In this document: positions 1,898 to 63,687 of the stretch, one piece after another | How the letters are laid out: the number at the start of each line of letters is the position of its first letter | Numbering within the stretch: the stretch's first letter is position 1 | From: Gemmatimonadota bacterium | GTDB taxonomy: Bacteria > Gemmatimonadota > Gemmatimonadetes > Longimicrobiales > Gaopeijiaceae | Assembly: GCA_034521595.1 (NCBI GenBank) | Contig: JAXHMG010000003.1 | Span: 2,592,001-2,656,000 of the forward strand | Direction of reading: 5' to 3' | DNA: 64,000 bases | The notes under the pieces: generated by a model | Databases searched by the model: none | Told to the model about the DNA's origin: nothing | Seen by the model: the letters and a program-made list of their open reading frames with translations, nothing else | Made by a program: the position numbers and the translations under genes

Positions 1898-3000
1898 CCT
1901 CGCTCCGTCTCGAGTCTGATGAGCCCAGCGGAGATCGCCCCGCGCAGGAACACCTCCGGGTCACTCCAGGGGATCTCCAGTCCTCGCTGGTCGTGCCAGC
2001 GCTCCGCGAGCCTACGCATGTACTGTCCCACGGTCTCGTGGGAAAACCCCGAATGGTCCCGCATCTGCGTGACGATCTCGGTCCAGGTTCCCCGGAGCCG
2101 GCGCCCGTCTCCGAGACGGACCACGTGAACCCGCTTCGATTCCGACGACTCGCCGCGCTCGAACAACTCGAGCTGCCCCGGATCGTAGGGGGGCACGGCA
2201 TCCGCCTCCACCTTCGACTCGATCTCGGCGAGGAGCTGATCGACGGGATCTCCCGAGTCCTCGAGATCGCGGAGCCGCTGCTCCCACGGGGCGAGATGGG
2301 GCGCTCCCGCGTCGAGATGCCAGAGGATCCGCTTGAGCTCGATGAGCCTCCAGACCGCCAGGGGGTCCCAGTGCTCCGCCGGGGGGACCCCCTCCAACTC
2401 CCTGAGCGCCGCCTCCCAATCGCCACGGTCGTACAACAAATGGCCGAGGTAGACTCGCGCTTCGTGGAGATCCGGGTCGAGCCTCAGCGCCCGGCGAATC
2501 TGTCGGCCGGCGCCGACGTCGTCACCGAGCCGGTGCAGGGCATACCCGAGCGAGGCCGCGGCTTCGGCGTTGTCGGGCCTGGCGGCGGCGGCCTGAGCGA
2601 ATACGTCCCTACAGTCGGCGTACATCGCCGCCCGGTAGAGCGCACGCCCGATCGTGAGCATCAGCTCGAGATCGTCGTCGTACCCGGCGTCCGCGACCCG
2701 TCGGAAGAGTTCCAGTGCCTGCGCGTGACGCCCGAACCGAAGAAGGACCTCGCCGAGGCCGACGAGCGCATCCTCGTGACCGGAATCGAGCAACACCGCC
2801 CGGTCGAACGCCCGTCGTGCCCACGCGTACTCTTCCCTCGCCAGCCTGGCATATCCGAGGCCCACGTAGAGCTCCACCGCGTTCGGATAGAGCGAGAGTC
2901 CCTCTTTGAGCATCTCGAGGGCTCCGTCGTAGTCCCCGTTGTTGTAGAGCTTGTGCGCCTCTTCGTCGTATTCCTCCGAGCTGAGGAACCGTTCGGGCAT
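1894..3000 (-). CDS. Tetratricopeptide repeat protein
   Basis: Repeated TPR helices (LYVGLGYARL, ALVGLGEVLL, AAASLGYALH, ARVYLGHLLY) plus a small C-terminal domain. Confidence 0.88.
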   Translation of the reverse strand: MPERFLSSEEYDEEAHKLYNNGDYDGALEMLKEGLSLYPNAVELYVGLGYARLAREEYAWARRAFDRAVLLDSGHEDALVGLGEVLLRFGRHAQALELFRRVADAGYDDDLELMLTIGRALYRAAMYADCRDVFAQAAAARPDNAEAAASLGYALHRLGDDVGAGRQIRRALRLDPDLHEARVYLGHLLYDRGDWEAALRELEGVPPAEHWDPLAVWRLIELKRILWHLDAGAPHLAPWEQRLRDLEDSGDPVDQLLAEIESKVEADAVPPYDPGQLELFERGESSESKRVHVVRLGDGRRLRGTWTEIVTQMRDHSGFSHETVGQYMRRLAERWHDQRGLEIPWSDPEVFLRGAISAGLIRLETERG

Positions 3001-3114
3001 ATGGGAACGCTCCTTGTCGGACGGTGCCGCCTGCGACGGGAAGGGGTACGGGTGCTCGAAATTAACGCGCAGGCCCTGGAGGAGCTACCCTCGGCGAGGG
3101 CTCACGGGCGCCGC

Positions 3115-3585
3115 TCACGCCTTACCGTAGGCGACCCCACACGCTTTGCACACGAGATCCTTGCCCGAGCGGACGAGCGCGTGGCCGGAGCCGTGCCGGG
3201 GACAGCTCGGATCCCGGCCCGATTCGAGCGCTTCCTTGACCTTCTGCCGCTCGGTGCGTGTCGCCTTCGGGATCGGAAGCTCGTAGCGGAGGGACGAGAC
3301 GCTGCACTCGAAGATCGCCACCGCGCCGCCGTCCTCGTCCGGAAGCACGCCCAGGCGTATGAGGTGCCCCCCGTTCGGGGACTCCATCTGCCGTCCCTGG
3401 TAGTACCGCTTTAGCAGCTGTTTCTGGTTCTCCAGCTGCAATGCCTGATCCAAAACGCCCCCTTTGTCGACGAAAATCGGCCGGGAGTATATCGGGACCG
3501 TGAGGTCCGCGCCACCCGTCCCCACGGGGCCGTAAAAAAGCGGAGCGGGGAGCCGAAAATTCGGCTCCCCGCTCCGCTCGGACAT
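3115..3585 (-). CDS. Hypothetical protein with C-terminal Zn-finger-like motif
   Basis: Protein-like composition; CPRH...CKAC at the C-terminus. Confidence 0.65.
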   Translation of the reverse strand: MSERSGEPNFRLPAPLFYGPVGTGGADLTVPIYSRPIFVDKGGVLDQALQLENQKQLLKRYYQGRQMESPNGGHLIRLGVLPDEDGGAVAIFECSVSSLRYELPIPKATRTERQKVKEALESGRDPSCPRHGSGHALVRSGKDLVCKACGVAYGKA

Positions 3586-3609
3586 ACGGGAGACCCATGA
3601 CCGTCGAGG

Positions 3610-3882
3610 TCAGGCGACGCCCGCGTCCTCCATGTCCTCGGCGCCGTCCTTGGCCGAGCTTCCCTCACCGTGGGCGATGGCCGGCCGGCAGAACCGCGTC
3701 CCGATCTCGTGGAGGCCTCGGAGATCGCTGTCCGTAAGGTCCGGATACCGCTCTCCCAGGTACTCGATGGTCTCGTCCATCCAGTGACGCTGGTCTTCCT
3801 CGGCCGCCTGTAGAACACCACACCGGTTGATGTGGCTGAAAAGCTCGTCTCTTGCACGATCAAGAAGTTTTTCTTTCGACAA
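3610..3882 (-). CDS. Small helical hypothetical protein
   Basis: TTG start preceded by GGAGGGAG RBS; acidic helical composition. Confidence 0.7.
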   Translation of the reverse strand: MSKEKLLDRARDELFSHINRCGVLQAAEEDQRHWMDETIEYLGERYPDLTDSDLRGLHEIGTRFCRPAIAHGEGSSAKDGAEDMEDAGVA

Positions 3883-4019
3883 AGTCTCCCTCCGTCATAT
3901 TGCTGTCCGCTCGGGCCTGCGCCCGGGTATCGGCTCGGGCCTCAGCCGTGTAACGTAACCGTGATCCGAGCTCCAACCAAACCATTCCGGCGACCACCGT
4001 GCCGCGAAGCGCATTCAGC

Positions 4020-5621
4020 ATGACCGACACCCCCACGATCGATCCCGTGACCCTGGAGGTCTACAGACACCTCTTCACCGCGATCTCGGAAGAGATGGGC
4101 GCCACCCTCCGGCGCGCCTCCTTCTCGCCGAACATCAAGGAGCGCCGGGACTACTCCTGCGCTCTTTTCGATCCCCGGGCACGAGCGGTCGCCCTCGGCG
4201 ACCACATGCCGGTCCACCTGGGCGCCATGCCGATGAGCGTCGCTGCCGCCCTCGAAGCGCTCGGCGATCTCGATCCCGGGGATGTCGCCTGCCTGAACGA
4301 CCCCTTCCGCGGCGGCACGCACCTCCCGGATGTCACGCTCGTCGCGCCCGTGTACGATGACGGCGACGCGCTTCTCGGCTACGTGGCGTCCCGCGCGCAT
4401 CATAGCGACATCGGAGGCTCGACGCCCGGCTCGATGCCGCTCGCCCGGGAGATCTTCGAGGAAGGCCTTCGTATCCCGCCGGTACGGCTTCATCGGGCCG
4501 GTACGCGCAACGAGGCGCTGTGGCGCACGATTCTCGCGAACGTTCGCACCCCGGGGGAGCGGGCGGGCGACCTCGACGCCCAGACGGCGGCCCTGAGAAC
4601 GGGGACCCGCCGGCTCCGAGAGATCGTCGCCCGACGGGGTACTCCGGAGACCCTCCTGGCCATGGACGGCCTCATCGCCTACGCGGACCGGCTGGTCGAG
4701 CGGGGGATCGAACGGATTCCGGACGGAACCTACACCGCCGAAGACTGGCTGGAAGACGACGGCTTCGACTCGGGTCCGGTCCGCATCCGGGCTTCCCTCA
4801 CCGTGGACGGCTCCCGGCTGAAGCTCGATTTCGCGGGCTCCGCGCCCCAGGTTCCGGGCGGCGTCAACGCCGTCGCGGCGATCACGGCGTCCGCCGTCCG
4901 TTACGTGGTACGGTGCGTCGTCGAAGCCCTTCTCGGGGAAACCCTACCCGCCGGAGGGGGATCGATGCGCCCCGTCACACTTCGGGTACCGGAGGCGTCG
5001 GTGGTGAACGCGGAGCCCCCGGCCTCCGTGGCCGCTGGCAACGTGGAGACGAGCCAACGGATCACGGATGTCCTTCTCCTCACCTTCGGCCGCGCCCTAC
5101 CGGATCTCATCCCCGCCCTCTCGCAGGGCACGATGAACAACATGACCGTCGGAGGCACCGATCCACGCTCCGGCACGCGCTTCGCCTACTACGAGACCGT
5201 GGGCGGTGGCATGGGCGCGGGTCCCGGGGGCGATGGTCTGAGTGGAGTGCACACACACATGTCCAACTCGCTCAACACCCCGATCGAGGCGCTCGAGCAC
5301 GCGTACCCGGTCCGGGTGACGCACTACGGCCTGCGGCGCGGCACCGGGGGCGCCGGCGAGCACAGAGGGGGCGACGGCCTCCGACGCGACATTCAGCTCC
5401 TCGCCCCCGCGCGCGTCACGCTCCTTTCCGAGCGCCGTCTCACGGGACCTACGGGAGCCCGAGGCGGGCTGCCCGGGACTCCGGGCGCGAATGTCCTCAT
5501 CCGGTCCGGGGAGGAGATGTCCCTGCCCGGAAAGGCTACATTCTCCGTCGACGCCGGGGACACCGTCAGCGTCCGCTCGCCCGGTGGAGGGGGATGGGGC
5601 CCCCTTCGAACGAGCGGGTGA
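4020..5621 (+). CDS. Hydantoinase B/oxoprolinase family protein
   Basis: SPNIKERRDYSCALFD, HMPVHLG, NDPFRGGTHLPD, HHSDIGG, NTPIEALE, PGGGGWG. Confidence 0.95.
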   Translation: MTDTPTIDPVTLEVYRHLFTAISEEMGATLRRASFSPNIKERRDYSCALFDPRARAVALGDHMPVHLGAMPMSVAAALEALGDLDPGDVACLNDPFRGGTHLPDVTLVAPVYDDGDALLGYVASRAHHSDIGGSTPGSMPLAREIFEEGLRIPPVRLHRAGTRNEALWRTILANVRTPGERAGDLDAQTAALRTGTRRLREIVARRGTPETLLAMDGLIAYADRLVERGIERIPDGTYTAEDWLEDDGFDSGPVRIRASLTVDGSRLKLDFAGSAPQVPGGVNAVAAITASAVRYVVRCVVEALLGETLPAGGGSMRPVTLRVPEASVVNAEPPASVAAGNVETSQRITDVLLLTFGRALPDLIPALSQGTMNNMTVGGTDPRSGTRFAYYETVGGGMGAGPGGDGLSGVHTHMSNSLNTPIEALEHAYPVRVTHYGLRRGTGGAGEHRGGDGLRRDIQLLAPARVTLLSERRLTGPTGARGGLPGTPGANVLIRSGEEMSLPGKATFSVDAGDTVSVRSPGGGGWGPLRTSG

Positions 5622-40864: not shown

Positions 40865-42621
40865 GCGGAAGCCGCGAAGACCCTTCCTTGCCGAGCTTCA
40901 CCCTACCCGAGTCCATCCCCCCGATCGGACACGAGGAGCCTGACCTGGCCGTCGCGGCGCCCGGCGCGTCCAGTGCCTTCCGACTCGACGGAGCGCGGGT
41001 CTCCGTCCACGGGACCGCCAACGGTCCCGTGACCGACGTCTGGATCGACGGGACCCGGGTCGCGGCCGAGCTCGACGGATGGGAGGGAGCCGTCGCGAAC
41101 ACCGTGACGTCGCCCGGCCGGATGCGCCGGGAGCGCGTCGGCAGGGTAGGCTCCGCGGAAGAGGTGTTCCTGGTCCCGCCGAGCCTACCGTTCGCGGCCT
41201 TCCAGTGGACCGGATCCGGAGCGGCACCACTCCGGCTGCGAGCCTGGCCCGACGCACCCGGGGTTCGCTACCGAATCGAGGACCGCACGCTGACGCTGGC
41301 GGCCGACGACTCCGATCGGCTGCTCGTGGTGGGACTCATGTCCGGGTCCGGGCAGTGGACCGTGCAGGATCATGCGGAAGGGGACGGCGTGCTCCTGGTC
41401 GCGAACGGATCCACCGCGCCTCGTACGCTTCTCCTCGCGCTCGGAACTCCTGATGCGCTCCGGACCGCGATGCGCAGCGCACGGCTCCTTGCGACGCACG
41501 AAGCCCCCGCGACGACCGGACCGGGCGTGGGCACGATGCGACTGCGGACGGGCGTGCGGGAGCTCGACGACGCGGTTGCCTGGATGAGCGGAAGGCTGCG
41601 ACACGGCGTGACAGGCAGCGGAACCCGCGCCACGCCCGCGCCCCTGGATCAGCGGGCCTGGCTTTGGGCCGGCCTGGCGGCAACGGCGACGGGCGACGAA
41701 GAGAGCGCCGAGCGTTGCGCCTCGATCCTCGAGCGACTGGCACCGGACGAAGAAGGCGCTCTGCTCGCGGGATCGATCGGATTGGCCACGGGGAAGAGCG
41801 GCCGAGCCGTCACGTGCGCCGAGCGGTTGCTCGATCCGGAGCTACCGCCTCCGGCCCCCCACGCTCCGGGCGCGGAGATGTTGCGTCGCCTCGCGCGCCA
41901 CAGACTCGCCGACGCACTTCGGTACGCGGCTCCGGAGGAGGTCTTGAGCCGGCTGCGGGAGGAACCCGTAGCCAGGGGCGGCGTCGGCCTGCCCACCGTC
42001 GGAACCCCACCTCCGAACCCGCCGAGCCTCGAGTCCTGGATCCGCTCGCTCGTTCGAGACATGCGCGGTCGAGCCGTTGACCGTGAAGATGTCGGAAGGG
42101 CCCTTCGGGCCTGGGCGGACACCTACACGAACATCGACGCGGGATGGGCTTCCTGGCGGTCACATGTCGGCGAAGGGCTCACGAACGGGCATCACGGCAT
42201 TGCCGCTTGGGACGGGCTCGATCGGGCGGGCCCACCGGCCGTGACCGGGCTGCTCCTGGCCGGTATGGCCTACGGATGGCTGGGGAGCGAACCCGACGCC
42301 CCCGTCGGCAGGCTCCGCTTGGCCCCCCGGATCCCCACACACGTCACGAGGTTCCACGTTTCGGGCATCCCCATCGGTGACGCTCGCGTCGCCCTGGCTT
42401 ATGAGCGGACGAACGGAACCTACCGGTTCGAGCTCGAGGTGGAACGGGGACGGGTGCCTCCCCTGGTCGCATTCGAGCCGACCCTCGGGTGCCGGGTGGA
42501 GCGGGTGCGTGTGGACGAAGCGCCGGCGGACCCCGAGATCACCCTTTCGGGAACGGGCACCACCATCCGGCTCCAGACCCCGCTCGACGCGAAGCGACGG
42601 ATCGAAGTCGACGCACGCTGA
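40861..42621 (+). CDS. Hypothetical protein, possibly degenerate (alpha/alpha)6 glycoside hydrolase-like
   Basis: Long coupled ORF. The C-terminal LG.EPDAP.GRLRLAP..P resembles amylo-alpha-1,6-glucosidase/GH65 tails. Confidence 0.55.
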   Translation: MSGSREDPSLPSFTLPESIPPIGHEEPDLAVAAPGASSAFRLDGARVSVHGTANGPVTDVWIDGTRVAAELDGWEGAVANTVTSPGRMRRERVGRVGSAEEVFLVPPSLPFAAFQWTGSGAAPLRLRAWPDAPGVRYRIEDRTLTLAADDSDRLLVVGLMSGSGQWTVQDHAEGDGVLLVANGSTAPRTLLLALGTPDALRTAMRSARLLATHEAPATTGPGVGTMRLRTGVRELDDAVAWMSGRLRHGVTGSGTRATPAPLDQRAWLWAGLAATATGDEESAERCASILERLAPDEEGALLAGSIGLATGKSGRAVTCAERLLDPELPPPAPHAPGAEMLRRLARHRLADALRYAAPEEVLSRLREEPVARGGVGLPTVGTPPPNPPSLESWIRSLVRDMRGRAVDREDVGRALRAWADTYTNIDAGWASWRSHVGEGLTNGHHGIAAWDGLDRAGPPAVTGLLLAGMAYGWLGSEPDAPVGRLRLAPRIPTHVTRFHVSGIPIGDARVALAYERTNGTYRFELEVERGRVPPLVAFEPTLGCRVERVRVDEAPADPEITLSGTGTTIRLQTPLDAKRRIEVDAR

Positions 42622-54650: not shown

Positions 54651-55061
54651 TCAGGACCGGGGTCGGTAGACGCTCACCCGGAGAGGCGGTGCGATGGAGT
54701 AGCTGAACCGGAGACGGTTCTCCCCTTCCACGATCACGTTGGAGATCTTCTGGCGCGTCTTGGGATAGTCGTGCCCCTGCTCGTTCTCGACGATGAGCAC
54801 CTCGTCCTCGTCGAGATTCTCGACGAGTGTGTCGAGCTGCTGACGCAAGCGGTCCAACAGCACCTGCTCGGTTTCGTCCTGTACGTCCCCTTCGGCTTCG
54901 CTCACGAGCTCGTGGACGTCCCCCCGTTCGTATCGCTCCTCGAGCTCCTCGAGAGATATCGCTCGGGCTCGGTTTCTACGGAACGACACCTCGTTCAGAG
55001 CCTTGGAATCGAAGTTGGGATCGACGCTCTGGTACGTATCGCCGTATTTCTTGAAGATCAT
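54651..55061 (-). CDS. Conserved-type hypothetical protein
   Basis: Protein-like acidic ORF directly downstream of the DEAD-box gene. Confidence 0.75.
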   Translation of the reverse strand: MIFKKYGDTYQSVDPNFDSKALNEVSFRRNRARAISLEELEERYERGDVHELVSEAEGDVQDETEQVLLDRLRQQLDTLVENLDEDEVLIVENEQGHDYPKTRQKISNVIVEGENRLRFSYSIAPPLRVSVYRPRS

Positions 55062-55072
55062 CCCAGAGACGC

Positions 55073-56332
55073 TCAGGAGTCGGGGTTCAGGAGCGCATCG
55101 AGCTCTTCGGGCGTCAACTCGTCGGCGGAACGGGAGCCCATGCCGTGCGGGGAGCGGGACCTGCGTCCGCGCGTGGCCGCCGCGCGCGTCTCGGTCTTGG
55201 GGGCTCCGGAATAGTCGTACTCGGGAAGGTGCTCTCGCTCGATGGGCCGGTCCAACCGATGCTCGATGCTCTTCACGGCGCCCAGATCCCCCGCGGTCAC
55301 GAACGTGACGGCCGTACCCGTCGCGCCGGCCCGGCCTGTGCGGCCGATCCGGTGCACGTAGTCTTCGGGATCCAACGGAACGTCATAGTTGACGACATGG
55401 CTGATGCCCTCCACGTCCAGGCCGCGCTGCGCGACGTCGGTCGCGACGAGAGCCCTGACCTTCCCCGAGGCGAACCGCTCCAGTGCACGAGTGCGGTGTT
55501 TCATCTGCCGATCCGAATGCATGACGTCGACCTCGATCCCCTCACGCTCCAGCCGTCGCTCGAGCACGTCGGCTCCCGCTTTGGTGCGGGTGAAGATCAA
55601 CACCTGACTCCACTCGGGATTGGACATCAACTCGATGAGCAGCTCCGGCTTCTTGTCCGGCTTGACGGAATAGAAGCGTTCCTCGATCCCGACCGCCGTC
55701 GTGCCGGAGGGGGTCGCCTCGATCCACTCCGCATCGCGCGTGAGACGGAGCGCCAGGTCGTGCACGCCGTTCGGCATGGTGGCGCTGAAGAGCATCGTCT
55801 GACGCTTGGACGGCATCGACCGGAACACGTCCTCGATTTGCGGACGGAAGCCCATATCCAGCATGCGGTCGGCCTCGTCGAGAACGAGGTATTGGACGTT
55901 CGACAGGTCGACTCTGCCCGACCCCATGTGATCGATGAAGCGACCCGGTGTCGCGACGATCACCTCGTAGCCCTGATCCAAGGCCGTGATCTGCGGCCCG
56001 TAGCCCACACCACCGAAGATGCTCTCACTTCGGATGCTCGTGCCCTTTGCCAGGGCCTGTGTGTCTTCGTGGACCTGTTGCGCGAGCTCTCGCGTCGGGC
56101 AGAGCACCAAGATCTGCAAGCCCTTTCCCGCCTCGATACGCTCCAGGCCGGGAATCATGAACGCACCGGTCTTACCCGTGCCGGTCTGCGCCACGCCCAC
56201 GATATCGGAACCGGCGAGAGCGGGTGGAATGGCCCGTTCCTGAATGGGCGTGGGGGTCGTCCACCCGAGCGCCTCGACGGCAGCCAGGCGGTCCGAAGAG
56301 AGGCCGAGATCGGCGAAGCTTTTCGTATCCAA
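55073..56332 (-). CDS. DEAD-box RNA helicase (RhlE-like)
   Basis: PTPIQ, AQTGTGKT, PTRELA, TPGR, LDEADRMLDMGF, SAT, QRGLD, HRIGRTGR. Confidence 0.96.
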   Translation of the reverse strand: MDTKSFADLGLSSDRLAAVEALGWTTPTPIQERAIPPALAGSDIVGVAQTGTGKTGAFMIPGLERIEAGKGLQILVLCPTRELAQQVHEDTQALAKGTSIRSESIFGGVGYGPQITALDQGYEVIVATPGRFIDHMGSGRVDLSNVQYLVLDEADRMLDMGFRPQIEDVFRSMPSKRQTMLFSATMPNGVHDLALRLTRDAEWIEATPSGTTAVGIEERFYSVKPDKKPELLIELMSNPEWSQVLIFTRTKAGADVLERRLEREGIEVDVMHSDRQMKHRTRALERFASGKVRALVATDVAQRGLDVEGISHVVNYDVPLDPEDYVHRIGRTGRAGATGTAVTFVTAGDLGAVKSIEHRLDRPIEREHLPEYDYSGAPKTETRAAATRGRRSRSPHGMGSRSADELTPEELDALLNPDS

Positions 56333-56588
56333 AGAAGACTCTTCCTGCTGAGCGCATCACGGGGTAGCGGCCCCCGAAACGTGACACCCGAGGAGCCTGA
56401 AGTTGATGAGGCGCGCTCGATCCGATGGGCCACCGTGCGTGTGACGTAGGCTCGATCGGATGCGCCCCGGCCAAGAAGATAACGAGCTTCCTTGCCAAGG
56501 GTGTAGGAGCTTGGACAACTTGGCCGCATCCCGAACGGGAGTGCTCCGAACTTTTCATCGACCCGACACGAGTGAGCCTGCCACCGCC

Positions 56589-57086
56589 ATGGACGCAGAT
56601 TCCACGAACGAGGATCGCATCTCGGTTCTGTTCGTCTGTCTCGGCAACATCTGCCGCTCTCCGCTCGCCGAAGGCGTCTTCCGAGCCCTCGTCGACGAAC
56701 GCGGCCTGAACGACCAATTCGAGATCGACTCGGCCGGAACCGGAGGTTGGCACGTGGGCGAGCAGGCGGACTCGCGAGCCACCATGGTCGCGAAGCGCTA
56801 CGGCGTGGCGCTCGAAAGCCGTGCCCGGCAGGTCACGGAGGAAGATCTCTCCCGCTTCGACTACGTCATCGCGATGGACCGCGACAACCTCGACGTGCTC
56901 GAGGGTATGTTGGGGTCGTCCGAGGCGGATACCGAGCTGCACCTTCTTCGGGAATTCGACCCTCGAGGAGACGGCGATGAAGTGCCGGACCCGTACTACG
57001 GCGGTGCGAGCGGGTTCGAGAACGTCTACGAGATGATCGAACGCTCCTGCACGGCTCTGCTCGACCACATGCTCGCACAACGGTGA
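56589..57086 (+). CDS. Low-molecular-weight protein-tyrosine phosphatase
   Basis: FVCLGNICRSP, DSAGT, VPDPYYG. Confidence 0.96.
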   Translation: MDADSTNEDRISVLFVCLGNICRSPLAEGVFRALVDERGLNDQFEIDSAGTGGWHVGEQADSRATMVAKRYGVALESRARQVTEEDLSRFDYVIAMDRDNLDVLEGMLGSSEADTELHLLREFDPRGDGDEVPDPYYGGASGFENVYEMIERSCTALLDHMLAQR

Positions 57087-57988
57087 TCGACGCGCTGCCG
57101 GAGGAGTTGCGCCACGGGGTCGAGCAGGCGCTTCGCACACGGGAGCAATCGCCACGGATCGTCCGCGTGGAGCCGGTGGCCGGCGGGTGCATCCACAACG
57201 GCTGCCTGATCGTGACAGACACTGGCTCCGAGTGGTTCCTGAAGTGGAACCGGACGGTCCCACCGGGCATGTTCGAGGCGGAAGCCGAGGGCCTTCGGGC
57301 CCTCCGAGCCACCGGCGCCGTGAGGGTGCCCGAGCCCATGGCCTGCGAGGCCCCCGAGACGGAAGGTCCCGCGTGGCTCCTCATGGAGTACGTGCGTCCT
57401 GGTCCCGTCCGACCGGGATCGGAGCAGGCCCTCGGGGCAGGGCTGGCCCGGCTGCACCGCTCCGCCGTCGACCGCACGTTCGGGTGGAGCGAGGACAACT
57501 GGATCGGCTCCCTCCCCCAAGCCAACCCGCTCATGGAGTCTTGGGGGGAGTTCTGGCGTGATGCGCGAATTCACCCTCAGCTCGAGCGAGCGCGGCGGAG
57601 CGGGAGGCTTCGCGATCCGGTATTCGACCGACTCCTCGAAGCCACGCCGGGTGCGCTCAGCCACGTCGTCCAACCGGAGCTCCTCCACGGCGACCTATGG
57701 CAAGGAAATACCTTGACGGCGGAGGACGGGGAGCCGGTGCTGATCGATCCGGCCGTGTACCGCGGCGACGGAGAAGTCGATCTCGCGATGTCGGAGCTCT
57801 TCGGCGGCTTCGGGTCGGCGTTCTACGAAGCCTACGCCACGGGCCGACCCATCACGTCCGAGTATCGCACATACGGCCGGGACCTCTACCAACTCTACTA
57901 CCTCCTGGTCCACGTGAACCTGTTCGGCGCTTCGTACGAATCCGCCACGCTCGCCGCGGCCAGACGGGTCATGGAGGCGGTCGGTTGA
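57083..57988 (+). CDS. Fructosamine/ketosamine-3-kinase family
   Basis: GGCIH, FEAEAEGL, DNWIG, LLHGDLW.GN, DPAVY.GD.EVDLAM.ELFGGF. Confidence 0.95.
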   Translation: MIDALPEELRHGVEQALRTREQSPRIVRVEPVAGGCIHNGCLIVTDTGSEWFLKWNRTVPPGMFEAEAEGLRALRATGAVRVPEPMACEAPETEGPAWLLMEYVRPGPVRPGSEQALGAGLARLHRSAVDRTFGWSEDNWIGSLPQANPLMESWGEFWRDARIHPQLERARRSGRLRDPVFDRLLEATPGALSHVVQPELLHGDLWQGNTLTAEDGEPVLIDPAVYRGDGEVDLAMSELFGGFGSAFYEAYATGRPITSEYRTYGRDLYQLYYLLVHVNLFGASYESATLAAARRVMEAVG

Positions 57989-58112
57989 AGGGCTTGGATC
58001 GACGCCGCGCTGGTCCTTTTCTTGCAGCCTGAAATCGGCGCACCTACCTTTCGTCGCGGGTCGATGGGGCGCCCCAACCCTTCCCCTTCCCCCATCTTCG
58101 GATGCATTGCAC

Positions 58113-59483
58113 ATGTCGGACAGGCGCGAGGCAGCCGCGCGTTCCGTGGCCGCGGCGAGTGATGTGACGCCCCCGGGTCCGGCGGCCGACCACGAACGAA
58201 TGCTCCTGCTCGAGTGCCGGCTGGAGCAGATGAGGGCGGCGGTCACGGCCGCCCGTGAGGAGGCCGACGACGCCCGGACCAAGCTGGCCGACGCGTGCGC
58301 GCGGGAAGCCACCCACATGCGCCGGTCGAGCGTTCTGCACGAGGAGCTCGCCGACGCGCGCGCCGAGATCGCCTCGCTCCACCGGCAACTGGAACGCTCC
58401 GAAGCCCTCAGGGCCGAAATCGAGGGACATCTTTTCGAAGGGGGAACCCGGGAAGACGCCGAGGAGCTGGTGCGCCTCCGCCAACAGGTCCTCGCCGAGG
58501 ATCAACGCTCCGTCGTGAACCATCGCACCCTGACCCGGCTGCGTGCCCGGATCGAAGAGCTCGTAGCGAGTCGGGAGACGCTGCTCACGCGGATCGCGGA
58601 GTGGCAGAAGCTCATCAGGGAAGATGGGCCGGAGGCCGCCGATCTTTCCGAGTTCCTGGCCGAGCTGCGCCGCGAGATCCTCGACCTCGAGCACCGAGAC
58701 GTCACCAGTGACGCCCGGGAGAAGGCACTGCGGGAGCGCCTGACTCAGGCGGGCATCGACCCGGACGCGGAAGCGACCGCTCTGGAGGCGGACGAGCCCG
58801 AGCCGCGCACCGACGAGGCGGTATCCACCGGAGCCGACCCGAGCGAGGACGCTTCCCCGGCTGCGGACCCGGCTGCGGACATGCCGGGCCGGAACCGCGA
58901 ACTGCCAGCGTCCCGCCGGTCGCCGGCCCCGGCCCGGCCAGGCCCCGCGCGGAGCGATACCGACGCCGCGACGGCCGAGTTGGCGGCGGCGGAGGGCCCC
59001 GCTCGGCGAGCGGACCTCCTGCTCCGTCTGGGCCGGAAGGGAGAAACGGGCATGCTCGACGTGATCCGCCCATGGACGGAAGCTCCGCAAGCCTCGGTGC
59101 GTGCCGCCGCGTACGAAGCTCTCGGCCGGCTTCTCGAACGAGAGCCCGAAACGCTGGAGCCGCACCTGCGCAGGGGGCTCGCCGACACGGACGCGCGCGT
59201 GCGGCGACGCGTGGTTCTGGCCGCGGCCACCGCTCGAGGGCTACCCCCCGAGTCTCTGCTGGAGCCCCTGGAGGAAGACCCCGACGGGCAGGTACGTCGC
59301 GTCGTCCGCGAGGTCCTCCGGCAAGCGCGATCGACCACATCCGACCCCCGGCAGAGCAACGGGCTTGGCCCGGGTGCCCGGGCACCGTCCGCGCCGACGC
59401 TGGAACGCGAGCCCACGCGGGATCCACGTCCCGAAAGCTCGCATGAGCCGGCCCACTCGCACCGTTCCTCGAGGGCTCGTTAG
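58113..59483 (+). CDS. pomY: PomY-like protein: N-terminal coiled coil, disordered linker, HEAT repeats, disordered C-tail
   Basis: E/R/L/A-rich heptads over about aa 25-215; HEAT-like SVRAAAYEALGRL, DARVRRRVVLAA, DPDGQVRRVVREVL; P/S/R-rich tail. Its stop overlaps the ATPase start (TAGTG). Confidence 0.72.
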   Translation: MSDRREAAARSVAAASDVTPPGPAADHERMLLLECRLEQMRAAVTAAREEADDARTKLADACAREATHMRRSSVLHEELADARAEIASLHRQLERSEALRAEIEGHLFEGGTREDAEELVRLRQQVLAEDQRSVVNHRTLTRLRARIEELVASRETLLTRIAEWQKLIREDGPEAADLSEFLAELRREILDLEHRDVTSDAREKALRERLTQAGIDPDAEATALEADEPEPRTDEAVSTGADPSEDASPAADPAADMPGRNRELPASRRSPAPARPGPARSDTDAATAELAAAEGPARRADLLLRLGRKGETGMLDVIRPWTEAPQASVRAAAYEALGRLLEREPETLEPHLRRGLADTDARVRRRVVLAAATARGLPPESLLEPLEEDPDGQVRRVVREVLRQARSTTSDPRQSNGLGPGARAPSAPTLEREPTRDPRPESSHEPAHSHRSSRAR

Positions 59484-60448
59484 TGGAGATCCGATATCGG
59501 AGAAAACACCTCGCAGAGGTGCTCGGCATCCCGGAGCAGCGCCTCGCCGAAGCCGATGACCGGACCGATCCGTCGTCCGTGAACGGCGGACCGGACGACT
59601 ACGGTCCCGAGGATCTCTCCGCGTACCGGGAGGCGCTCGGGCTCCGACCCGGCCGGCGCCCCCTGCGGCGGCAGCTCTTCCTCAACTTCAAGGGCGGCAC
59701 CGGCAAGACCAGCTTGTCCGTCTCGTACGCGTACCGGCTGGCCGAGATGGGGCACCGCGTCCTGCTCGTGGATCTGGATTCGCAGGGGCACGCCACCCAA
59801 CACATGGGCTTCGAGGGAGAACACTGCGCGCATACGCTCCACGACGTGCTGATCGAGCGTCTGCCCGTCCGGGACGCGGTCGTGGACACGCCGTTGGCGG
59901 AGTTCGATCTCTTGCCCGCCAACCTCGGCATGAGCACCATCGAGCTGGCTCTCATGCCCCTGGCCGGGCGTGAGTACCGACTCAAGAAGGCGCTCGACGA
60001 GATCTCCGACAGCTACGAGTTCATCGTCATGGACGCGCCTCCGTCGTTCGGCCTCCTCAATCTGAACGCCCTGATCGCGGCCGACGACCTCTTCGTGCCC
60101 GTGCTTCCCGACTTTCTGTCCTTCCACGGCCTCAAGCTTCTCTTCGAAACGCTCAACGGGCTGGAGGAAGATCTCGACCATGCGCTGGAGCGCATCTTCA
60201 TCGTCATCAATCAGTACAACCCGACGACCCGGATCGCGCGAGAGGCGCGTGAAGCGCTCCAGACCCACTACCCCGAGTTCCTCCTGAAGACGATCGTCCG
60301 CCAGTGCACCCGGTTCGCTCAGGCGTCCAGCGAAGGGTTGCCCATCTGCGCCTTCGACCCGCGAAGCAAGGGAGCGGAGGATACGGATTCACTCATTCAC
60401 GAAGTGATGCCCACCCCGCGGGCGGAGCAGCAGGAGAAGAGCGCATGA
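59483..60448 (+). CDS. pomZ: ParA/MinD-family ATPase, PomZ (AgmE)-like
   Basis: RRQLFLNFKGGTGKTS, DLDSQGHAT, ALMPLAGRE, DAPPSFGLLNLNAL, DFLSFHGLKLLFET, RQCTRFAQASSEG; N-terminal HTH-like extension. Confidence 0.88.
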   Translation: MEIRYRRKHLAEVLGIPEQRLAEADDRTDPSSVNGGPDDYGPEDLSAYREALGLRPGRRPLRRQLFLNFKGGTGKTSLSVSYAYRLAEMGHRVLLVDLDSQGHATQHMGFEGEHCAHTLHDVLIERLPVRDAVVDTPLAEFDLLPANLGMSTIELALMPLAGREYRLKKALDEISDSYEFIVMDAPPSFGLLNLNALIAADDLFVPVLPDFLSFHGLKLLFETLNGLEEDLDHALERIFIVINQYNPTTRIAREAREALQTHYPEFLLKTIVRQCTRFAQASSEGLPICAFDPRSKGAEDTDSLIHEVMPTPRAEQQEKSA

Positions 60449-61356
60449 AAAACGGATTCAACGCGAACGTGCCGGTGCGGAAGCCACGCACGCGGATCGG
60501 CCAGATGCTCACGGAGCTGACCTCCGAAGCGGAGGAGCGAGAGCTCGACGATCTGGTCGAAGCCCAGGAGGAGGCGCCGGCCACCCCCTCGGAAGACCCG
60601 GACGCACCCCGAACCCCGGACGAGCCGGAAGCCCGGGATGATGCGGCCGACCCCGATGTGGAAGCTCCCACCCCACCGACATCGTCCCGGCCTCCGAGCG
60701 ATTCGACCCGCCTCGCGGCCGGCCGCGAACGGGTGGCATCGCTTCGCGACCGGCTCGCCGCGGCGGAGCGGGCTCCCGTCGCGGACAGGCAACCGAAGGA
60801 AACCGCCGCGAGCGTGCTGGAAGTCGTCGAGGACCTGCACGATCGCCTGGAAGCAACGATCCGAGAGCGCGCGGAAATGGCCGAGACGCTCGACGACACC
60901 CGAAGGCAACTCGCCCAGGTCGAGTCGGAGCTCGAAAAGGAACGGAGCGCGCGCGCCGCGATCGAATCGCGCCGGGAGGAACATGTACGCATCGCCGAGG
61001 AAGCGGTCACCGAAGCCGAGGCGCTCGCCGCCGAGCGTGACCAGGTCCTTTCCGAGCTCGCCGAACAACGGCGGCTCGACGACGAACAGGCGGAGCTCCT
61101 GGCCGAAGCGGAAGCGATGCTCGAGCGCCGGGACGCCGAACGGGCAGAGGCTGCCGCGGAGGTGGCGGAACTGCGCGAACAGCTGGAGACCCGCTCGGCG
61201 GAGATCGCGGACCTGAAGAGCCGCCTCCAGGCCCGGTCCTCCGACTACGCTCGCCTGGAGACCCGTTGCCGGGAGCTGGAGGCAGAGGTCGAGAAACTCA
61301 CCGAAGCACGTGAAGCGCTGGAGGCCATCGAAGCCCAGGTCCACCGCCGCACCTGA
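60445..61356 (+). CDS. pomX: PomX-like protein: basic N-terminal peptide, acidic/Pro-rich IDR, long C-terminal coiled coil
   Basis: AGGAG RBS and ATGA overlap with the ATPase; N-terminus MKNGFNANVPVRKPRTRIGQML; coiled coil from about aa 90 to the end. Confidence 0.82.
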   Translation: MKNGFNANVPVRKPRTRIGQMLTELTSEAEERELDDLVEAQEEAPATPSEDPDAPRTPDEPEARDDAADPDVEAPTPPTSSRPPSDSTRLAAGRERVASLRDRLAAAERAPVADRQPKETAASVLEVVEDLHDRLEATIRERAEMAETLDDTRRQLAQVESELEKERSARAAIESRREEHVRIAEEAVTEAEALAAERDQVLSELAEQRRLDDEQAELLAEAEAMLERRDAERAEAAAEVAELREQLETRSAEIADLKSRLQARSSDYARLETRCRELEAEVEKLTEAREALEAIEAQVHRRT

Positions 61357-61445
61357 CCCCGACGATCCGTCGGGAGCGAGCCACCACGAAAAGCCCCGTC
61401 AGGCCCCGGATAGAGGCCCGGCCTGGTGGCGGGTCGCCACCCGCA

Positions 61446-62642
61446 CTACGCCGCCGAGGTATCCACCACCTCCGCGATCCGGTCGAGCGCCTCGAGTAGC
61501 GTCTCGTCCGAAGCCGCGTAGCTCATCCGTACCCACCTGTCGTCTCCGAACGCGGCGCCCGGAACGAGCGCGACCCCCGCCTGCTCGATGATCTCGGAGC
61601 ACCAGGTCGTCGCGTCCGGCACACGGTCGTCGAAGAACCCGTCCACCCGGAAGTACACGTAGAACGCACCGTCGGGCTCGATCAAACGCACGGACGGGAA
61701 CAGCTCGCGCATGCGCGCGACCACGAGGTCCCGGCGACGCCGAAAGGCACGTCCCATCTCGGCCACCGCCTTCTCCGACGCGTCCACGTTCCGATACGCC
61801 TCGAGCGCAGCCATCTGAGTCGGTGTCGAAGGATTCGAGGTGACCTGACTCTGGAGTGCCGTGAGCTTGACCGCCACGTCCTTTTCGGCATAGGCGAAGC
61901 CCAAGCGCCACCCCGTCATCGCGTGGCTCTTGGAAAGCCCGTCGATCAGCACGGTCCGACCGAGGCTCTCGGGATCGAGCTCGAGCAAGCCGGGCGCCGC
62001 CGACCCCTCGCCGTGGTAGATCCTCCGGTAGATCTCGTCGCTGATGAGCCAAACGCCCCGGTCACGCGCCCACTCGGCGACCGCGGTGAGCTCCTGGTGC
62101 GAATAGACGGCACCGGATGGATTGCTCGGAGAGTTGAGAATCAAGCCCCGAGTCTCCTCCGTGACGGCACGGTCGAGATCCGCCGGCGTGACCTTGAAGT
62201 CACGCGACTCGGCGCCCCGAGCCACCACGGGCTCGGCGCGAGCCAACTGCACGAGCGCGGGATACGTAGTCCAGTACGGCGCCAGCATCAGCACGTCGTC
62301 TCCGGGGCCGAACAGGGAGAAGACGGCATTGAACAGCGCCTGCTTCGCACCGGTGCCGACCACCACGCCTTCCCAGGAGATCTCGCGTCCCGCCCGGTCC
62401 GCCAAGCGATCGGCGATCGCCTTCCGCAGCTCGGGCAAGCCGGGCGCCGGCGTATAGCGAGTGATTCCCCCGCGTATGCCCGCGATCGCCGCCTCCGAAA
62501 TGAACTCGGGCGTATCGAAATCCGGCTCACCCGCGCTCAGATTGATGATATCTCGTCCCTCGGCAGCGAGCCGTTTGGCGAGGGCGCTGACCGCCATGGT
62601 GGCCGACGGCTCGAGCTTTCCGATATTTTCGCTGAACGTCAT
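61446..62642 (-). CDS. Class I PLP aminotransferase (aspartate aminotransferase-like)
   Basis: AGEPDFDTP, NSPSNPSG, SDEIY, LSKSHAMTGWRLG, GAFY, RMSYA. Confidence 0.95.
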   Translation of the reverse strand: MTFSENIGKLEPSATMAVSALAKRLAAEGRDIINLSAGEPDFDTPEFISEAAIAGIRGGITRYTPAPGLPELRKAIADRLADRAGREISWEGVVVGTGAKQALFNAVFSLFGPGDDVLMLAPYWTTYPALVQLARAEPVVARGAESRDFKVTPADLDRAVTEETRGLILNSPSNPSGAVYSHQELTAVAEWARDRGVWLISDEIYRRIYHGEGSAAPGLLELDPESLGRTVLIDGLSKSHAMTGWRLGFAYAEKDVAVKLTALQSQVTSNPSTPTQMAALEAYRNVDASEKAVAEMGRAFRRRRDLVVARMRELFPSVRLIEPDGAFYVYFRVDGFFDDRVPDATTWCSEIIEQAGVALVPGAAFGDDRWVRMSYAASDETLLEALDRIAEVVDTSAA

Positions 62643-62750
62643 GCGATCCTCTCTCCGGTGGCAGTGGGGTCGAGAATATGGGCGAGGCCCGGGTCCCGTG
62701 AAAGCGACCACCTGGCCAGAGAGCCGCGGTATGGTGACCTTGTGCGTCTC

Positions 62751-63344
62751 ATGAACGACGCATCCCCCGAGCACCCGCTCACGCTCTACTTCGACCTGGT
62801 GGACCCGCTGTCCTTCCTCCTGGACAGGGAGTTGATGGCCGCCGAACAGGAGCTCGGCGTGCGCGTGCTGCGCCACGGCGTGGAGATCAGCCCACCGCCC
62901 CACCCACTCACCGCGCCTGGAGAGGCTCCGTGGAAGGAGCGGTGGGCACAGGCGGAGGCCGGAGCGGAGGAGCTCGACGTCCAGCTGCGGAAACCGGCCA
63001 TCGTGCCGTGGAGCCGCAAGGCCCACGAGCTGTTGCGCCACGCCGAGCAGGAAGGGAAGGCGGACGACCTCCGGGTCCGAATCTTCCGTGCGTTCTTCGA
63101 AGAGGGCTCGGACATCGGACGCGTGGATGTTCTGGTCGCTCTCGCAGTGGAAGCGGGATTCGACCGATCCGGCACGAAGGCCGTGCTCGATGTGGACCGC
63201 TACGACGAAGAGGTGGCTGGCCGTCGGGAGGCGGCGCTGGATGCCGGGATCCGCGTCATTCCCACGCTCCTCGGGGACGCAGGCCGGCTCGAGGGCTTCC
63301 GCAACCGCGCTTCGCTGAGCACCTTTCTCAGTGGGTCCTCGTGA
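62751..63344 (+). CDS. DsbA/FrnE-like thioredoxin-fold protein lacking CxxC
   Basis: LYFDLVDPLS, SRKAHEL, IFRAFFEEG.DIG..DVL, GIRVIPT. Confidence 0.8.
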   Translation: MNDASPEHPLTLYFDLVDPLSFLLDRELMAAEQELGVRVLRHGVEISPPPHPLTAPGEAPWKERWAQAEAGAEELDVQLRKPAIVPWSRKAHELLRHAEQEGKADDLRVRIFRAFFEEGSDIGRVDVLVALAVEAGFDRSGTKAVLDVDRYDEEVAGRREAALDAGIRVIPTLLGDAGRLEGFRNRASLSTFLSGSS

Positions 63345-63381
63345 CCTTGAGCACGCCTCGAAAACCCCGACCCCGTGGATC

Positions 63382-63687
63382 ATGGCCGGCTACCAGCGCA
63401 AGACCGCATCCTCCCCCTCCGAGATTCTGGAGCACGCCGAATCGGCGCTGCCGGAGATGGTGGGGCTCACGAAGGTCAAAGCCTCGGAGCACGGAGCGAC
63501 CTTCAGCGGTGACGAAGGAACGGTCACCTTCTCGGTGCATCGACACGGTCCGTATACCGATGTCGTCGCGAGCACCGACCGCCTACGGACATCCCGCCTC
63601 GACTACGAAATTCAACGGTTTCTGAACCGACTTCCGTACGAGCCGGGTGATCGCGGCGGGCGAGGGGCGGGAGAGCCGACCGGCTAG
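63382..63687 (+). CDS. Small hypothetical protein
   Basis: Protein-like ORF between the DsbA-like and helicase-like genes. Confidence 0.65.
   Translation: MAGYQRKTASSPSEILEHAESALPEMVGLTKVKASEHGATFSGDEGTVTFSVHRHGPYTDVVASTDRLRTSRLDYEIQRFLNRLPYEPGDRGGRGAGEPTG

Follow-up and report, generated by a model that had tools for sequence, protein, structure and literature searches.

The three overlapping genes described here, in a window of 64,000 nucleotides (the whole stretch of DNA analysed), probably encode a chromosomal PomXYZ-type system. This system would be homologous to the division-site positioning machinery of Myxococcus xanthus, and it lies in a Longimicrobiales-like Gemmatimonadota bacterium; we put the probability of this reading at roughly 75%.

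The PomXYZ proteins are stated to 'co-occur in Cystobacterineae' (PMC7993993) and to be 'conserved in Myxobacteria' (bioRxiv 10.1101/2025.12.01.691545). A preliminary description of the window took the system to be described only from myxobacteria, and the portions of PMC7993993 and of the 2025 preprint available to us do limit it to that group. According to the accessible part of a 2024 paper on division in Gemmatimonadota, genomes of the phylum seemingly encode no Min, MipZ, PomZ, MapZ or SsgAB, and orphan ParA-like proteins were proposed as candidates (PMC11271474). Judged by sequence, some members of the phylum encode a genuine PomZ together with partners that resemble PomX and PomY. The suggestion that a Pom-like operon exists outside the myxobacteria is thus borne out by a PomZ orthologue with such partners in a Gemmatimonadota genome.

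Organisation of the operon

The open reading frames and both gene junctions were found as first described, with three overlapping genes on the + strand (Table 1). At the junction of the PomY-like and PomZ genes (CGTTAGTGGAG), one base is common to the TAG stop and the GTG start; the PomZ and PomX-like genes share the 4-base overlap ATGA (GCATGAAA). The locus was compared with that of M. xanthus strain AM003 (pomY 863-3037, pomZ 3078-4037, pomX 4043-5257). The order Y-Z-X is the same in both, as had been claimed, but the AM003 genes are separated by short gaps. The same trio in the same order was present in 6 of 7 loci retrieved from relatives (one of the six from an unpublished genome), and the arrangement is therefore not due to chance.

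The flanks contain housekeeping genes, as expected from the preliminary description. On one side these encode a DEAD-box helicase, an LMW phosphatase and a fructosamine kinase, and on the other they encode an aminotransferase and a DsbA-like protein. Neither parB nor any min or mobile-element gene turned up among the flanking genes inspected. In NCBIfam, no family matched P0001, P0002 or P0003 above its curated cut-off. A consensus scan of positions 57600-61700 returned 0 promoter and 0 terminator sites, a scan made uninformative by the 70% GC content of the genome.

Table 1. Features of the operon, in positions of the window
Feature	Positions	Strand	Basis or description
PomY-like gene, P0001, 456 aa	58113..59483	+	N-terminal coiled coil, acidic disordered linker, four HEAT repeats, short basic tail
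P0001 coiled-coil region, residues 23-212	58179..58748	+	AF2 helices 23-108, 116-171, 178-212
P0001 HEAT block, residues 282-409, eight helices = 4 repeats	58956..59339	+	Pfam HEAT_2 E 1.7e-9; AF2 model
TAGTG stop/start overlap, PomY-like and PomZ genes	59481..59485	+	read from sequence
Gene for P0002 (assigned as PomZ orthologue), 321 aa, GTG start	59483..60448	+	orphan ParA/MinD-type ATPase
P0002 deviant Walker A KGGTGKT, K70-T76	59690..59710	+	translation; columns invariant in alignment
ATGA start/stop overlap, PomZ and PomX-like genes	60445..60448	+	read from sequence
PomX-like gene, P0003, 303 aa	60445..61356	+	N-terminal peptide, disordered linker, C-terminal coiled coil
P0003 N-terminal peptide, residues 1-26, with V9, K13, P14, R15	60445..60522	+	putative counterpart of PomX ATPase-activating peptide
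P0003 C-terminal coiled-coil domain, about residues 91-303	60715..61353	+	hhalign against myxobacterial PomX

The ATPase is assigned to PomZ

P0002 is a ParA/MinD-type ATPase (Pfam AAA_31, E 4e-45, 154 bits). Its Walker A motif and the Walker A' aspartates and Walker B (D97, D99, D184) are intact, and these positions are invariant in the alignment. It aligns collinearly with M. xanthus PomZ, N-terminal extension included, at 57% identity over 306 aa. The superfamily and the deviant Walker A are also common to chromosomal ParA/Soj proteins that work with ParB. The genome encodes such a Soj-type ParA, 31% identical to P0002; it adjoins a ParB at G000:C3:2955382, about 300 kb from the operon, whereas P0002 is an orphan with no parB nearby.

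Residues of PomZ that contact PomX or PomY, and that are conserved in PomZ but not in ParA/MinD, are named from modelling in the part of a preprint available to us (bioRxiv 10.1101/2025.12.01.691545). At a constant offset of +9, 19 of 21 are identical in P0002, the exceptions being V229I and L242I. In the same comparison the Soj-type ParA of this genome kept 5/21, and 150 ParA representatives mostly kept 2-7. The named myxobacterial proteins scored 24/24 at M. xanthus numbering, which validates the test.

In phylogenetic analysis P0002 fell within a PomZ clade (SH-aLRT 98) separate from Soj-type and other orphan ParAs; of its 52 rows, 28 are myxobacterial, 22 come from Gemmatimonadota and 2 are other. 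Tree, residue test and identity to M. xanthus PomZ agree in grouping the ATPase with PomZ, as first proposed, rather than with Soj or other ParAs. By these sequence comparisons P0002 is a PomZ orthologue.

McdA, ParC, MipZ, MinD and Soj were considered as identities for P0002, and were ruled out by the tree and the residue test. MinD/MinCDE and MipZ are likewise division-site regulators of the ParA/MinD family, but act negatively, whereas Pom acts positively. Against the bacterial MinD model P0002 reached 33.5 bits (cut-off 212.9), and its Pfam MipZ match was weak, at 34.7 bits compared with 154 bits for AAA_31.

Searches of solved structures with P0002 returned generic ParA/Soj, MinD and McdA chains, none labelled PomZ, with ParA/Soj the best match. 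The members of ten cluster representatives supplied one name, Candidatus Riflebacteria (47% identity), and no PomZ identification thereby. A complex prediction with a PomZ-like dimer, 2 ATP and residues 1-40 of P0003 scored 0.01 against a mark of 0.32, a result that has no bearing either way.

The downstream protein resembles PomX

The P0003 gene follows pomZ immediately and in the same orientation, as in M. xanthus; among myxobacterial loci, a downstream ORF with the PomX peptide was found in 70 of 80. The protein has the layout of PomX, conserved in its N-terminal peptide and its collinear coiled coil and variable in the linker between them; its pI is acidic, at 4.58 (4.88 for M. xanthus PomX). 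BLASTP aligned the peptide with residues 1-21 of M. xanthus PomX at 10/21 identities. M1, F5, V9, K13, P14, R15 and G19 are kept, and five of them (M1, F5, V9, P14, G19) do not vary in either phylum. In M. xanthus, K13 and R15 are required for activation, according to the part of PMC7993993 available to us. Peptide profiles matched by hhalign at 96.6% (E 5.8e-10, 30 columns), and a six-frame translation of the genome (3.49 Mb) contains the motif a single time.

The coiled coil of P0003 matched that of myxobacterial PomX at 97.7% (hhalign, E 1.5e-12) over 207 collinear columns. Coiled-coil profile matches ranged from 93.5 to 97.7%, and controls from 0.6 to 9.4% (9.4% for a reversed and 0.9% for a swapped coiled coil). 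On this profile and alignment evidence we conclude that the peptide and the coiled coil of P0003 are homologous to PomX. Among related loci, G005 carries a PomX-like coiled-coil fragment of about 80 residues, and the match in G006 ends at the contig end.

A probable, reduced counterpart of PomY

P0001 resembles M. xanthus PomY in having an N-terminal coiled coil and HEAT repeats. Coiled coil, HEAT repeats and disordered regions had all been described correctly, but not their order, which is coiled coil, disordered linker (acidic, residues 227-278), HEAT block and a short basic disordered tail of 47 residues (410-456). The coiled-coil region is conserved in 7/7 aligned Gemmatimonadota sequences, one of them from an unpublished genome. 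Whole profiles of P0001 and myxobacterial PomY matched by hhalign at 98.1%, through the HEAT block. Taken separately, the N-terminal coiled coils matched at 94.2% (E 1.1e-7; reversed control 21%, cross controls <1%) and the HEAT regions at 96.8% (reversed control 0.1%). In these comparisons the similarity of the flanking proteins to PomX and PomY extends to the individual domains, and does not extend to the coiled coil of the opposite partner.

Plain HMM searches gave a different result, and the expected reciprocal pairing of the flanking proteins with those of M. xanthus failed: neither X nor Y was a reciprocal best match. The Gemmatimonadota X profile had no match in the M. xanthus genome, and the myxobacterial PomX profile ranked P0003 first in this genome, but at E 0.57. 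The Gemmatimonadota Y profile preferred another HEAT protein of M. xanthus (E 3.4e-5) to pomY, which came second at E 0.2, and the myxobacterial PomY profile matched other HEAT proteins of this genome, with P0001 absent at E<=1. The likeness of P0001 to PomY appears to be confined to profile comparisons, where it covers the coiled coil and the HEAT block.

In several respects P0001 differs from M. xanthus PomY. It has 456 residues rather than 682, and is acidic with 4 HEAT repeats, whereas M. xanthus PomY is basic with 6-7; the pI is 5.33, compared with 9.7 computed for the M. xanthus protein. In P0001 the coiled coil and the HEAT block are joined by the disordered region, which in M. xanthus PomY comes after the HEAT repeats; P0001 has no long basic C-terminal disordered region. 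A profile of 20 myxobacterial C-termini, representing the globular (winged-helix-like) domain, found no match in this genome at E<=10; the same profile retrieves M. xanthus pomY at E 1.1e-29. Our pattern for the alpha-5 activating helix was found neither in P0001 nor in any of 6 Gemmatimonadota Y sequences, but it was present in only 3 of 20 myxobacterial PomY sequences too. As a counterpart of PomY, P0001 is acidic, reduced in size and devoid of the C-terminal globular domain. As this domain and the long basic tail are missing, PomX may be the only ATPase activator of the system.

Proposed function and alternative readings

By homology, the PomX-like protein would be a scaffold, polymerising through its C-terminal coiled coil. 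The PomY-like protein would bind this scaffold via its coiled coil and HEAT block and concentrate FtsZ, and ATP-bound dimers of the PomZ orthologue would hold the assembly on the nucleoid. The PomX-like peptide, through K13 and R15, would stimulate ATP hydrolysis by PomZ, so that the assembly would drift to mid-nucleoid and mark the division site. We infer every biochemical step from homology, as well as the FtsZ output, Z-ring placement included. Such a system would provide a concrete candidate for division-site placement in the Gemmatimonadota lineages that bear the operon, and would place a condensate-based positive regulator of FtsZ, by homology, in more than one phylum. It would also be a natural 'minimal' Pom system, in which one could ask which parts of PomY matter.

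The features missing from P0001 bear on this proposal. If the basic tail and globular domain disappeared from the PomY counterpart, or were never part of it, the PomZ/PomX pair could position a scaffold-condensate on the nucleoid to serve something other than the FtsZ ring, be it another cargo or another purpose. The acidic character of P0001, without the globular domain, the long basic disordered region or the alpha-5 motif, is consistent with such an output. So is the absence of the operon from most relatives, which are also without MinD above the cut-off and must therefore place their division sites otherwise. However, M. xanthus PomY reduced to coiled coil and HEAT, without the disordered region, suffices for clusters that colocalise with constrictions, according to the part of PMC10307791 available to us. 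Each of the four conserved domains finds its match in the Pom proteins, and no alternative cargo gene was found in the operon or its flanks. We therefore regard a different output as unlikely, and prefer division-site positioning.

Weak pairwise similarity, the failure of HMM genome searches for X and Y, and the generic nature of HEAT repeats and coiled coils would fit a case in which the ATPase alone is related to PomZ, and the two coiled-coil proteins beside it are adaptors of separate origin whose architecture became similar by convergence. Convergence would nevertheless have to account for a peptide that has the same residues at matching positions and occurs nowhere else in the genome, for domains far closer to their own counterparts than to reversed or swapped coiled coils, and for an identical gene order. 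The PomZ residues that touch the PomX peptide, as named in the available part of the preprint, are kept as well. Convergence of this kind is very improbable, and common descent of the whole trio is the reading we retain.

The host genome

The closest named homologues carry the names 'Gemmatimonadota bacterium' and 'Longimicrobiales bacterium', and by these names the genome is a Longimicrobiales-like member of the Gemmatimonadota. The host phylum therefore differs from that of M. xanthus, a myxobacterium. The attribution of the contig to a non-myxobacterial lineage holds, since a same-genus genome encodes an identical protein that bears the name 'Gemmatimonadota bacterium'; nor does the contig look chimeric: it is 3.1 Mb long and carries the whole window, in a genome of 3.49 Mb and 3 contigs whose contamination is 0.3%. 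That a myxobacterial contig was misbinned or joined here, so that the operon never left the Myxococcota, is suggested by P0082, a close homologue with 71% identity whose contig measures 4.6 kb and which is labelled 'Myxococcota bacterium', but is scarcely credible given the assembly, these names, the presence of the operon in same-genus and same-order genomes, and a tree in which the Gemmatimonadota sequences form their own group, set apart from 32 myxobacterial-type rows.

The genome has FtsZ and a separate parAB. A check for minCDE found no MinC, no MinE and no MinD above the cut-off; to our knowledge M. xanthus likewise has no Min system. Besides the Soj-type ParA beside parB, other ORFs of the ParA/MinD superfamily match Mrp/ApbC-like, ArsA and Wzc-like tyrosine-kinase models, ArsA alone exceeding its curated cut-off.

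Distribution and origin

The operon was present in 13 of 401 sampled Gemmatimonadota genomes. It is therefore not a general solution of the phylum, and offers no explanation for septum placement in the remaining roughly 97%.

A recent transfer from the Myxococcaceae/Archangiaceae was considered and rejected, because the Gemmatimonadota sequences never nest within that clade. Tentatively, and at somewhat below even odds, we suggest that Pom is not a myxobacterial invention, but a self-contained three-gene module that Myxococcota and Gemmatimonadota share, or that passed between them in the distant past. The Gemmatimonadota would have a minimal form, with PomX as sole activator and a PomY of coiled coil and four HEAT repeats, to which dual activation and the globular domain would be later myxobacterial additions. 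The phylum, for which no such system is reported, would then have its first identified machinery for marking the division site.

The closest ATPases outside the Gemmatimonadota, 62% identical to P0002, belong to a Vulgatibacter-like or uncultured 'Deltaproteobacteria/Myxococcales' lineage (P0124 and relatives). The members of this lineage are named as myxobacteria and were compared by ATPase alone. In one tree they were sister to the Gemmatimonadota group (SH-aLRT 89); once more members were added, their position became a polytomy.

Organisation of the locus

The three forward-strand genes noticed in the preliminary description were confirmed as ORFs (table below), and the junctions it had reported, a one-base TAG/GTG overlap at 59481-59485 and an ATGA at 60445-60448, are both as read in the sequence. 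Pfam searches gave a HEAT_2 match in P0001 (residues 324-403, E 1.7e-9), AAA_31 (E 4e-45) together with other ParA/MinD models in P0002, and sub-threshold coiled-coil noise only in P0003. No NCBIfam model scored over its cut-off for any of the three proteins. An AlphaFold2 model of P0001 (six-row input alignment, mean pLDDT 72) contained long helices at residues 23-108, 116-171 and 178-212, disorder at 227-278, eight helices within 282-409 and a disordered tail at 410-456. These positions, together with pI values, therefore suggest the order coiled coil, acidic linker, four HEAT repeats and short basic tail. The components listed earlier for this protein (coiled coil, HEAT and disordered region) stand, but their order is slightly different, since the main disorder precedes the HEAT block in the model.

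Features of the Gemmatimonadota locus, of related loci and of the Myxococcus xanthus AM003 pom locus (L071)
Feature	Sequence	Position	Strand	Description
P0001	window	58113-59483	+	ORF, 456 aa
P0002	window	59483-60448	+	ORF, 321 aa, GTG start
P0003	window	60445-61356	+	ORF, 303 aa
Flank ORF	window	54651-55061	-	136 aa, by housekeeping flank; no Pfam match at E<=1e-5
Flank ORF	window	63331-63687	+	118 aa, by housekeeping flank; no Pfam match at E<=1e-5
pomY	L071	863-3037
pomZ	L071	3078-4037		319 aa
pomX	L071	4043-5257		404 aa
PomY-like	L046 (genome G026)	2635-4575		646 aa
Coiled-coil fragment	L052 (G005:C95)	about 41726-41977		~80 residues

The block is preceded by genes for a DEAD-box helicase, a low-molecular-weight phosphotyrosine phosphatase and a fructosamine kinase, and followed by those for an aminotransferase and a DsbA-like protein; no mobile-element genes were seen in its flanks within the window. 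The three-gene order was retained in six of the seven relatives' loci examined, one of the six coming from an unpublished genome, G103. None of the flanking genes (window 55073-57988 and 61446-63344) is shared with these six loci (L046-L051), three of which belong to the same genus, and genomes G002 and G003 are the sole pair among the six with flanks in common. The three genes therefore behave as one self-contained unit whose surroundings differ from genome to genome. At the seventh locus, in G005 (window's genus, 98% complete), just a fragment resembling the PomX-like coiled coil was present, with no PomZ or PomY-like ORF within about 6 kb of it. This fragment may be the remnant of a lost operon.

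Relationship of the ATPase to PomZ

A search of 1.84 billion representatives with P0002 yielded P0125 (59% identity), whose homologues are named Archangium violaceum, Archangium sp., Anaeromyxobacter sp. and Myxococcaceae. When an alignment of these named homologues with P0002 was scanned over one genome per species, a relative was found to be encoded in 479 of 539 stretches. Nearly all of the best 80 of the 479 carry myxobacterial-type titles, and they include M. xanthus AM003, in which the order is pomY-pomZ-pomX and the pomX product has the length reported for PomX in the accessible text of PMC7993993. Among the other titles, L082 (BNCN01000008.1, 'Comamonas sp. KCTC 72670') contains a pomZ that shares 82% identity with the Archangium query and is flanked by ORFs resembling pomY and pomX, and L074, a 'Proteobacteria bacterium' MAG, has the same arrangement; both appear to be myxobacterial genomes under a wrong name.

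P0002 and M. xanthus PomZ share 57% identity over 306 residues, and because the alignment begins at residue 5 in each, the N-terminal extension is common to both. The available part of bioRxiv 10.1101/2025.12.01.691545 describes 21 PomZ residues, modelled as contacts to the PomX peptide or to helix alpha-5 of PomY, that are kept in PomZ and not in ParA/MinD. P0002 has the identical residue at 19 of these positions, with a uniform offset of +9 (exceptions V229I and L242I), compared with five for the Soj-type ParA of the same genome and two to seven for most of 150 ParA representatives. Named myxobacterial proteins score 24/24 when three catalytic positions are counted in, indicating that the residue numbering was read correctly. 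P0002 is, as judged from its sequence, a PomZ orthologue. An orphan AAA/ParA protein of Candidatus Riflebacteria (P0126, MBF0499264.1), 47% identical to P0002 and carrying 10 of the 21 signature residues, may belong to a related but distinct positioning-ATPase clade of another phylum.

Phylogenetic trees were quick IQ-TREE runs with SH-aLRT support only, and the outgroup branch is long. In the first tree, of 69 rows, myxobacterial and Gemmatimonadota PomZ form one clade (SH-aLRT 98) that excludes other orphan ParAs and the Soj-type outgroups, and the 22 Gemmatimonadota rows form one group (SH-aLRT 98). P0124 (62% identity to P0002) is sister to that group (SH-aLRT 89); its own relatives are named Vulgatibacter incomptus, Vulgatibacter sp., and Myxococcales and Deltaproteobacteria MAGs. 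Adding eleven of them collapsed the backbone to a polytomy. Once four long-branched orphan ParAs were removed, a branch (98) separated every one of the 32 myxobacterial-type rows from Gemmatimonadota plus outgroup.

The preliminary description had proposed a wider distribution or inter-phylum transfer. A PomXYZ-type locus outside Myxococcota bears out the former; as to the latter, these trees fail to separate an old transfer, whichever its direction, from old vertical inheritance followed by many losses. A recent capture from Myxococcaceae or Archangiaceae is not supported, since the Gemmatimonadota sequences nest within these families in no tree.

Counterparts of PomX and PomY

Among seven Gemmatimonadota sequences (one from G103), the P0003 family is conserved over its first ~26 and C-terminal ~210 residues and has a variable linker. 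BLASTP aligned residues 1-21 with M. xanthus PomX without gaps (10 identities, E 7e-4), and the coiled coils of the two proteins collinearly (29%, E 0.016). P0003 retains V9, K13 and R15 at the M. xanthus positions; K13 and R15 are required for PomZ activation and midcell positioning, according to the text seen of PMC7993993. Residues M1, F5, V9, P14 and G19 of the peptide are invariant in 21 sequences from both phyla. An ORF starting with the peptide lies downstream in 70 of the 80 myxobacterial loci, and the 3.49-Mb host genome, translated in six frames, contains a single copy of the N-terminal motif.

In profile-profile comparisons the P0003 coiled coil matched that of PomX at 97.7% (E 1.5e-12, 207 collinear columns), and whole profiles of P0001 and PomY matched in the HEAT block alone (98.1%, E 1.2e-13). 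As coiled coils and HEAT repeats are generic, single domains were tested with controls. The X N-terminal peptide matched its counterpart at 96.6% (reversed control 0.9%), the X coiled coil at 93.5% (9.4%), the Y N-terminal coiled coil at 94.2% with E 1.1e-7 (21%) and the Y HEAT block at 96.8% (0.1%). Swapped coiled coils, Y against X in both directions, scored below 1%. Thus each domain specifically resembles its own counterpart.

Reciprocal HMM searches of whole genomes, suggested in the preliminary description, told against these pairings. The myxobacterial PomX profile had the P0003 N-terminus as its top match in the host genome, but at E 0.57, and the Gemmatimonadota X profile had no match in the M. 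xanthus genome. The Y pair was not reciprocal either: the Gemmatimonadota Y profile found another HEAT protein of M. xanthus first (E 3.4e-5) and pomY second (E 0.2), and the myxobacterial PomY profile matched other HEAT proteins of the host genome and not P0001 at E<=1. The nearest protein-atlas look-alikes, taken as leads only, were a 299-aa Myxococcota cluster for P0003 (0.96) and, for P0001, its own Gemmatimonadota cluster and, after that, a 698-aa Myxococcota cluster (0.92). P0003 is a recognisable counterpart of PomX.

P0001 differs from M. xanthus PomY in several respects. Its pI of 5.33 contrasts with a computed value of 9.7 for PomY (9.3 in the portion seen of PMC10307791), it has four HEAT repeats rather than six or seven, and its disordered region lies ahead of the HEAT block rather than behind it. 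It also lacks the C-terminal globular domain of M. xanthus PomY. A profile of 20 myxobacterial PomY C-termini recovered M. xanthus pomY at E 1.1e-29 and did not find this domain in the host genome at E<=10. A pattern of our own for alpha-5, the activating element of PomY in the accessible text of bioRxiv 10.1101/2025.12.01.691545, matched none of six Gemmatimonadota Y sequences; this weighs little, as it matches only three of 20 myxobacterial PomY. Those three are from Myxococcus, Corallococcus and Pyxidicoccus, and the C-terminal globular domain could be aligned in all 20. Those residues of the PomZ pocket that are reported to bind alpha-5 are nonetheless kept in seven of seven further named myxobacterial-type PomZ proteins with M. 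xanthus numbering, a count that leaves out two rows of different offset, and also in the Gemmatimonadota PomZ.

In the sections available of PMC10307791, condensate formation in vitro requires the PomY coiled coil, which is also sufficient for it, and clusters made of the coiled coil and HEAT regions still coincide with constrictions. P0001 keeps both, and thus the retained parts are those tied to this activity. P0001 is predicted to be PomY-like but reduced. The PomY-like protein of G026 is longer because the acidic linker between coiled coil and HEAT block has about 190 more residues, and linker length can vary freely, as a disordered spacer would be expected to.

Division genes and probable function

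The host genome encodes FtsZ (positions 1753370-1754314 of the contig that holds the window), and at a distance of about 300 kb from the operon its ParB gene adjoins that of the Soj-type ParA. MinC and MinE were not found in it and no MinD scored over cut-off, in searches that all detected the named control genomes; MinD over cut-off was likewise absent from the 121 sampled genomes of the order. Its other ParA/MinD-superfamily ORFs matched Mrp/ApbC-like, ArsA and Wzc-type kinase models, with only ArsA over the curated cut-off.

The PomZ clade, the contact residues, the PomX peptide and the PomY-like domain matches agree with the Pom-like interpretation first offered. The locus is best described as a PomXYZ-type system outside Myxococcota; as predicted from sequence, it comprises a true PomZ, a PomX that is recognisable as such and a PomY in reduced form. 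Its most likely function would be Z-ring placement, as judged from homology, the lack of detectable Min genes and the presence of FtsZ; for the whole statement, homologous system and role together, we put the probability at roughly three in four.

No description of Pom proteins outside myxobacteria was found among the titles listed or in the accessible portions of the literature, and bioRxiv 10.1101/2025.12.01.691545, in its available part, calls the system conserved in Myxobacteria. The text seen of PMC11271474 states that no Min, MipZ, PomZ, MapZ or SsgAB seems to be encoded in gemmatimonadotal genomes, and puts forward orphan ParA-like proteins as candidates; the breadth of its 'no PomZ' statement may hang on the genomes or proteins searched (its Tables S5 and S6).

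Distribution

The window lies at positions 2592001-2656000 on a 3.1-Mb contig of a three-contig assembly of 93% completeness and 0.3% contamination. An orthologue of P0002 (64-72% identity) was present in 13 of 401 sampled genomes of the phylum, representing six of 147 genera. Within the order sample it was present in four of the 121 genomes (the host genome, G026, G029 and G103), the other 19 matches at E<=1e-40 being Soj-type with 31-34% identity. Relatives of P0003 occurred in nine of 41 close genomes, including all six others of the genus, two of the matches being partial.

The best 120 of 2425 P0002 homologues (E<=1e-10) span identities of 66-100% and lengths of 307-338 aa. Four of them carry organism names, namely 'Gemmatimonadota bacterium' (P0014), 'Longimicrobiales bacterium' (P0076, P0115) and 'Myxococcota bacterium' (P0082). 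P0014 is identical to a protein of G002, from the window's own genus, and both have zero branch lengths in the tree. P0082 is on a 4.6-kb contig and branches with P0113 at the base of the Gemmatimonadota PomZ group; it represents either a binning error or a lineage bridging both phyla. Sampled words from window 58000-61400 were found at 96% in a public run labelled salt pan metagenome, which may be the source sample, and at about 10% in two sediment metagenome runs.
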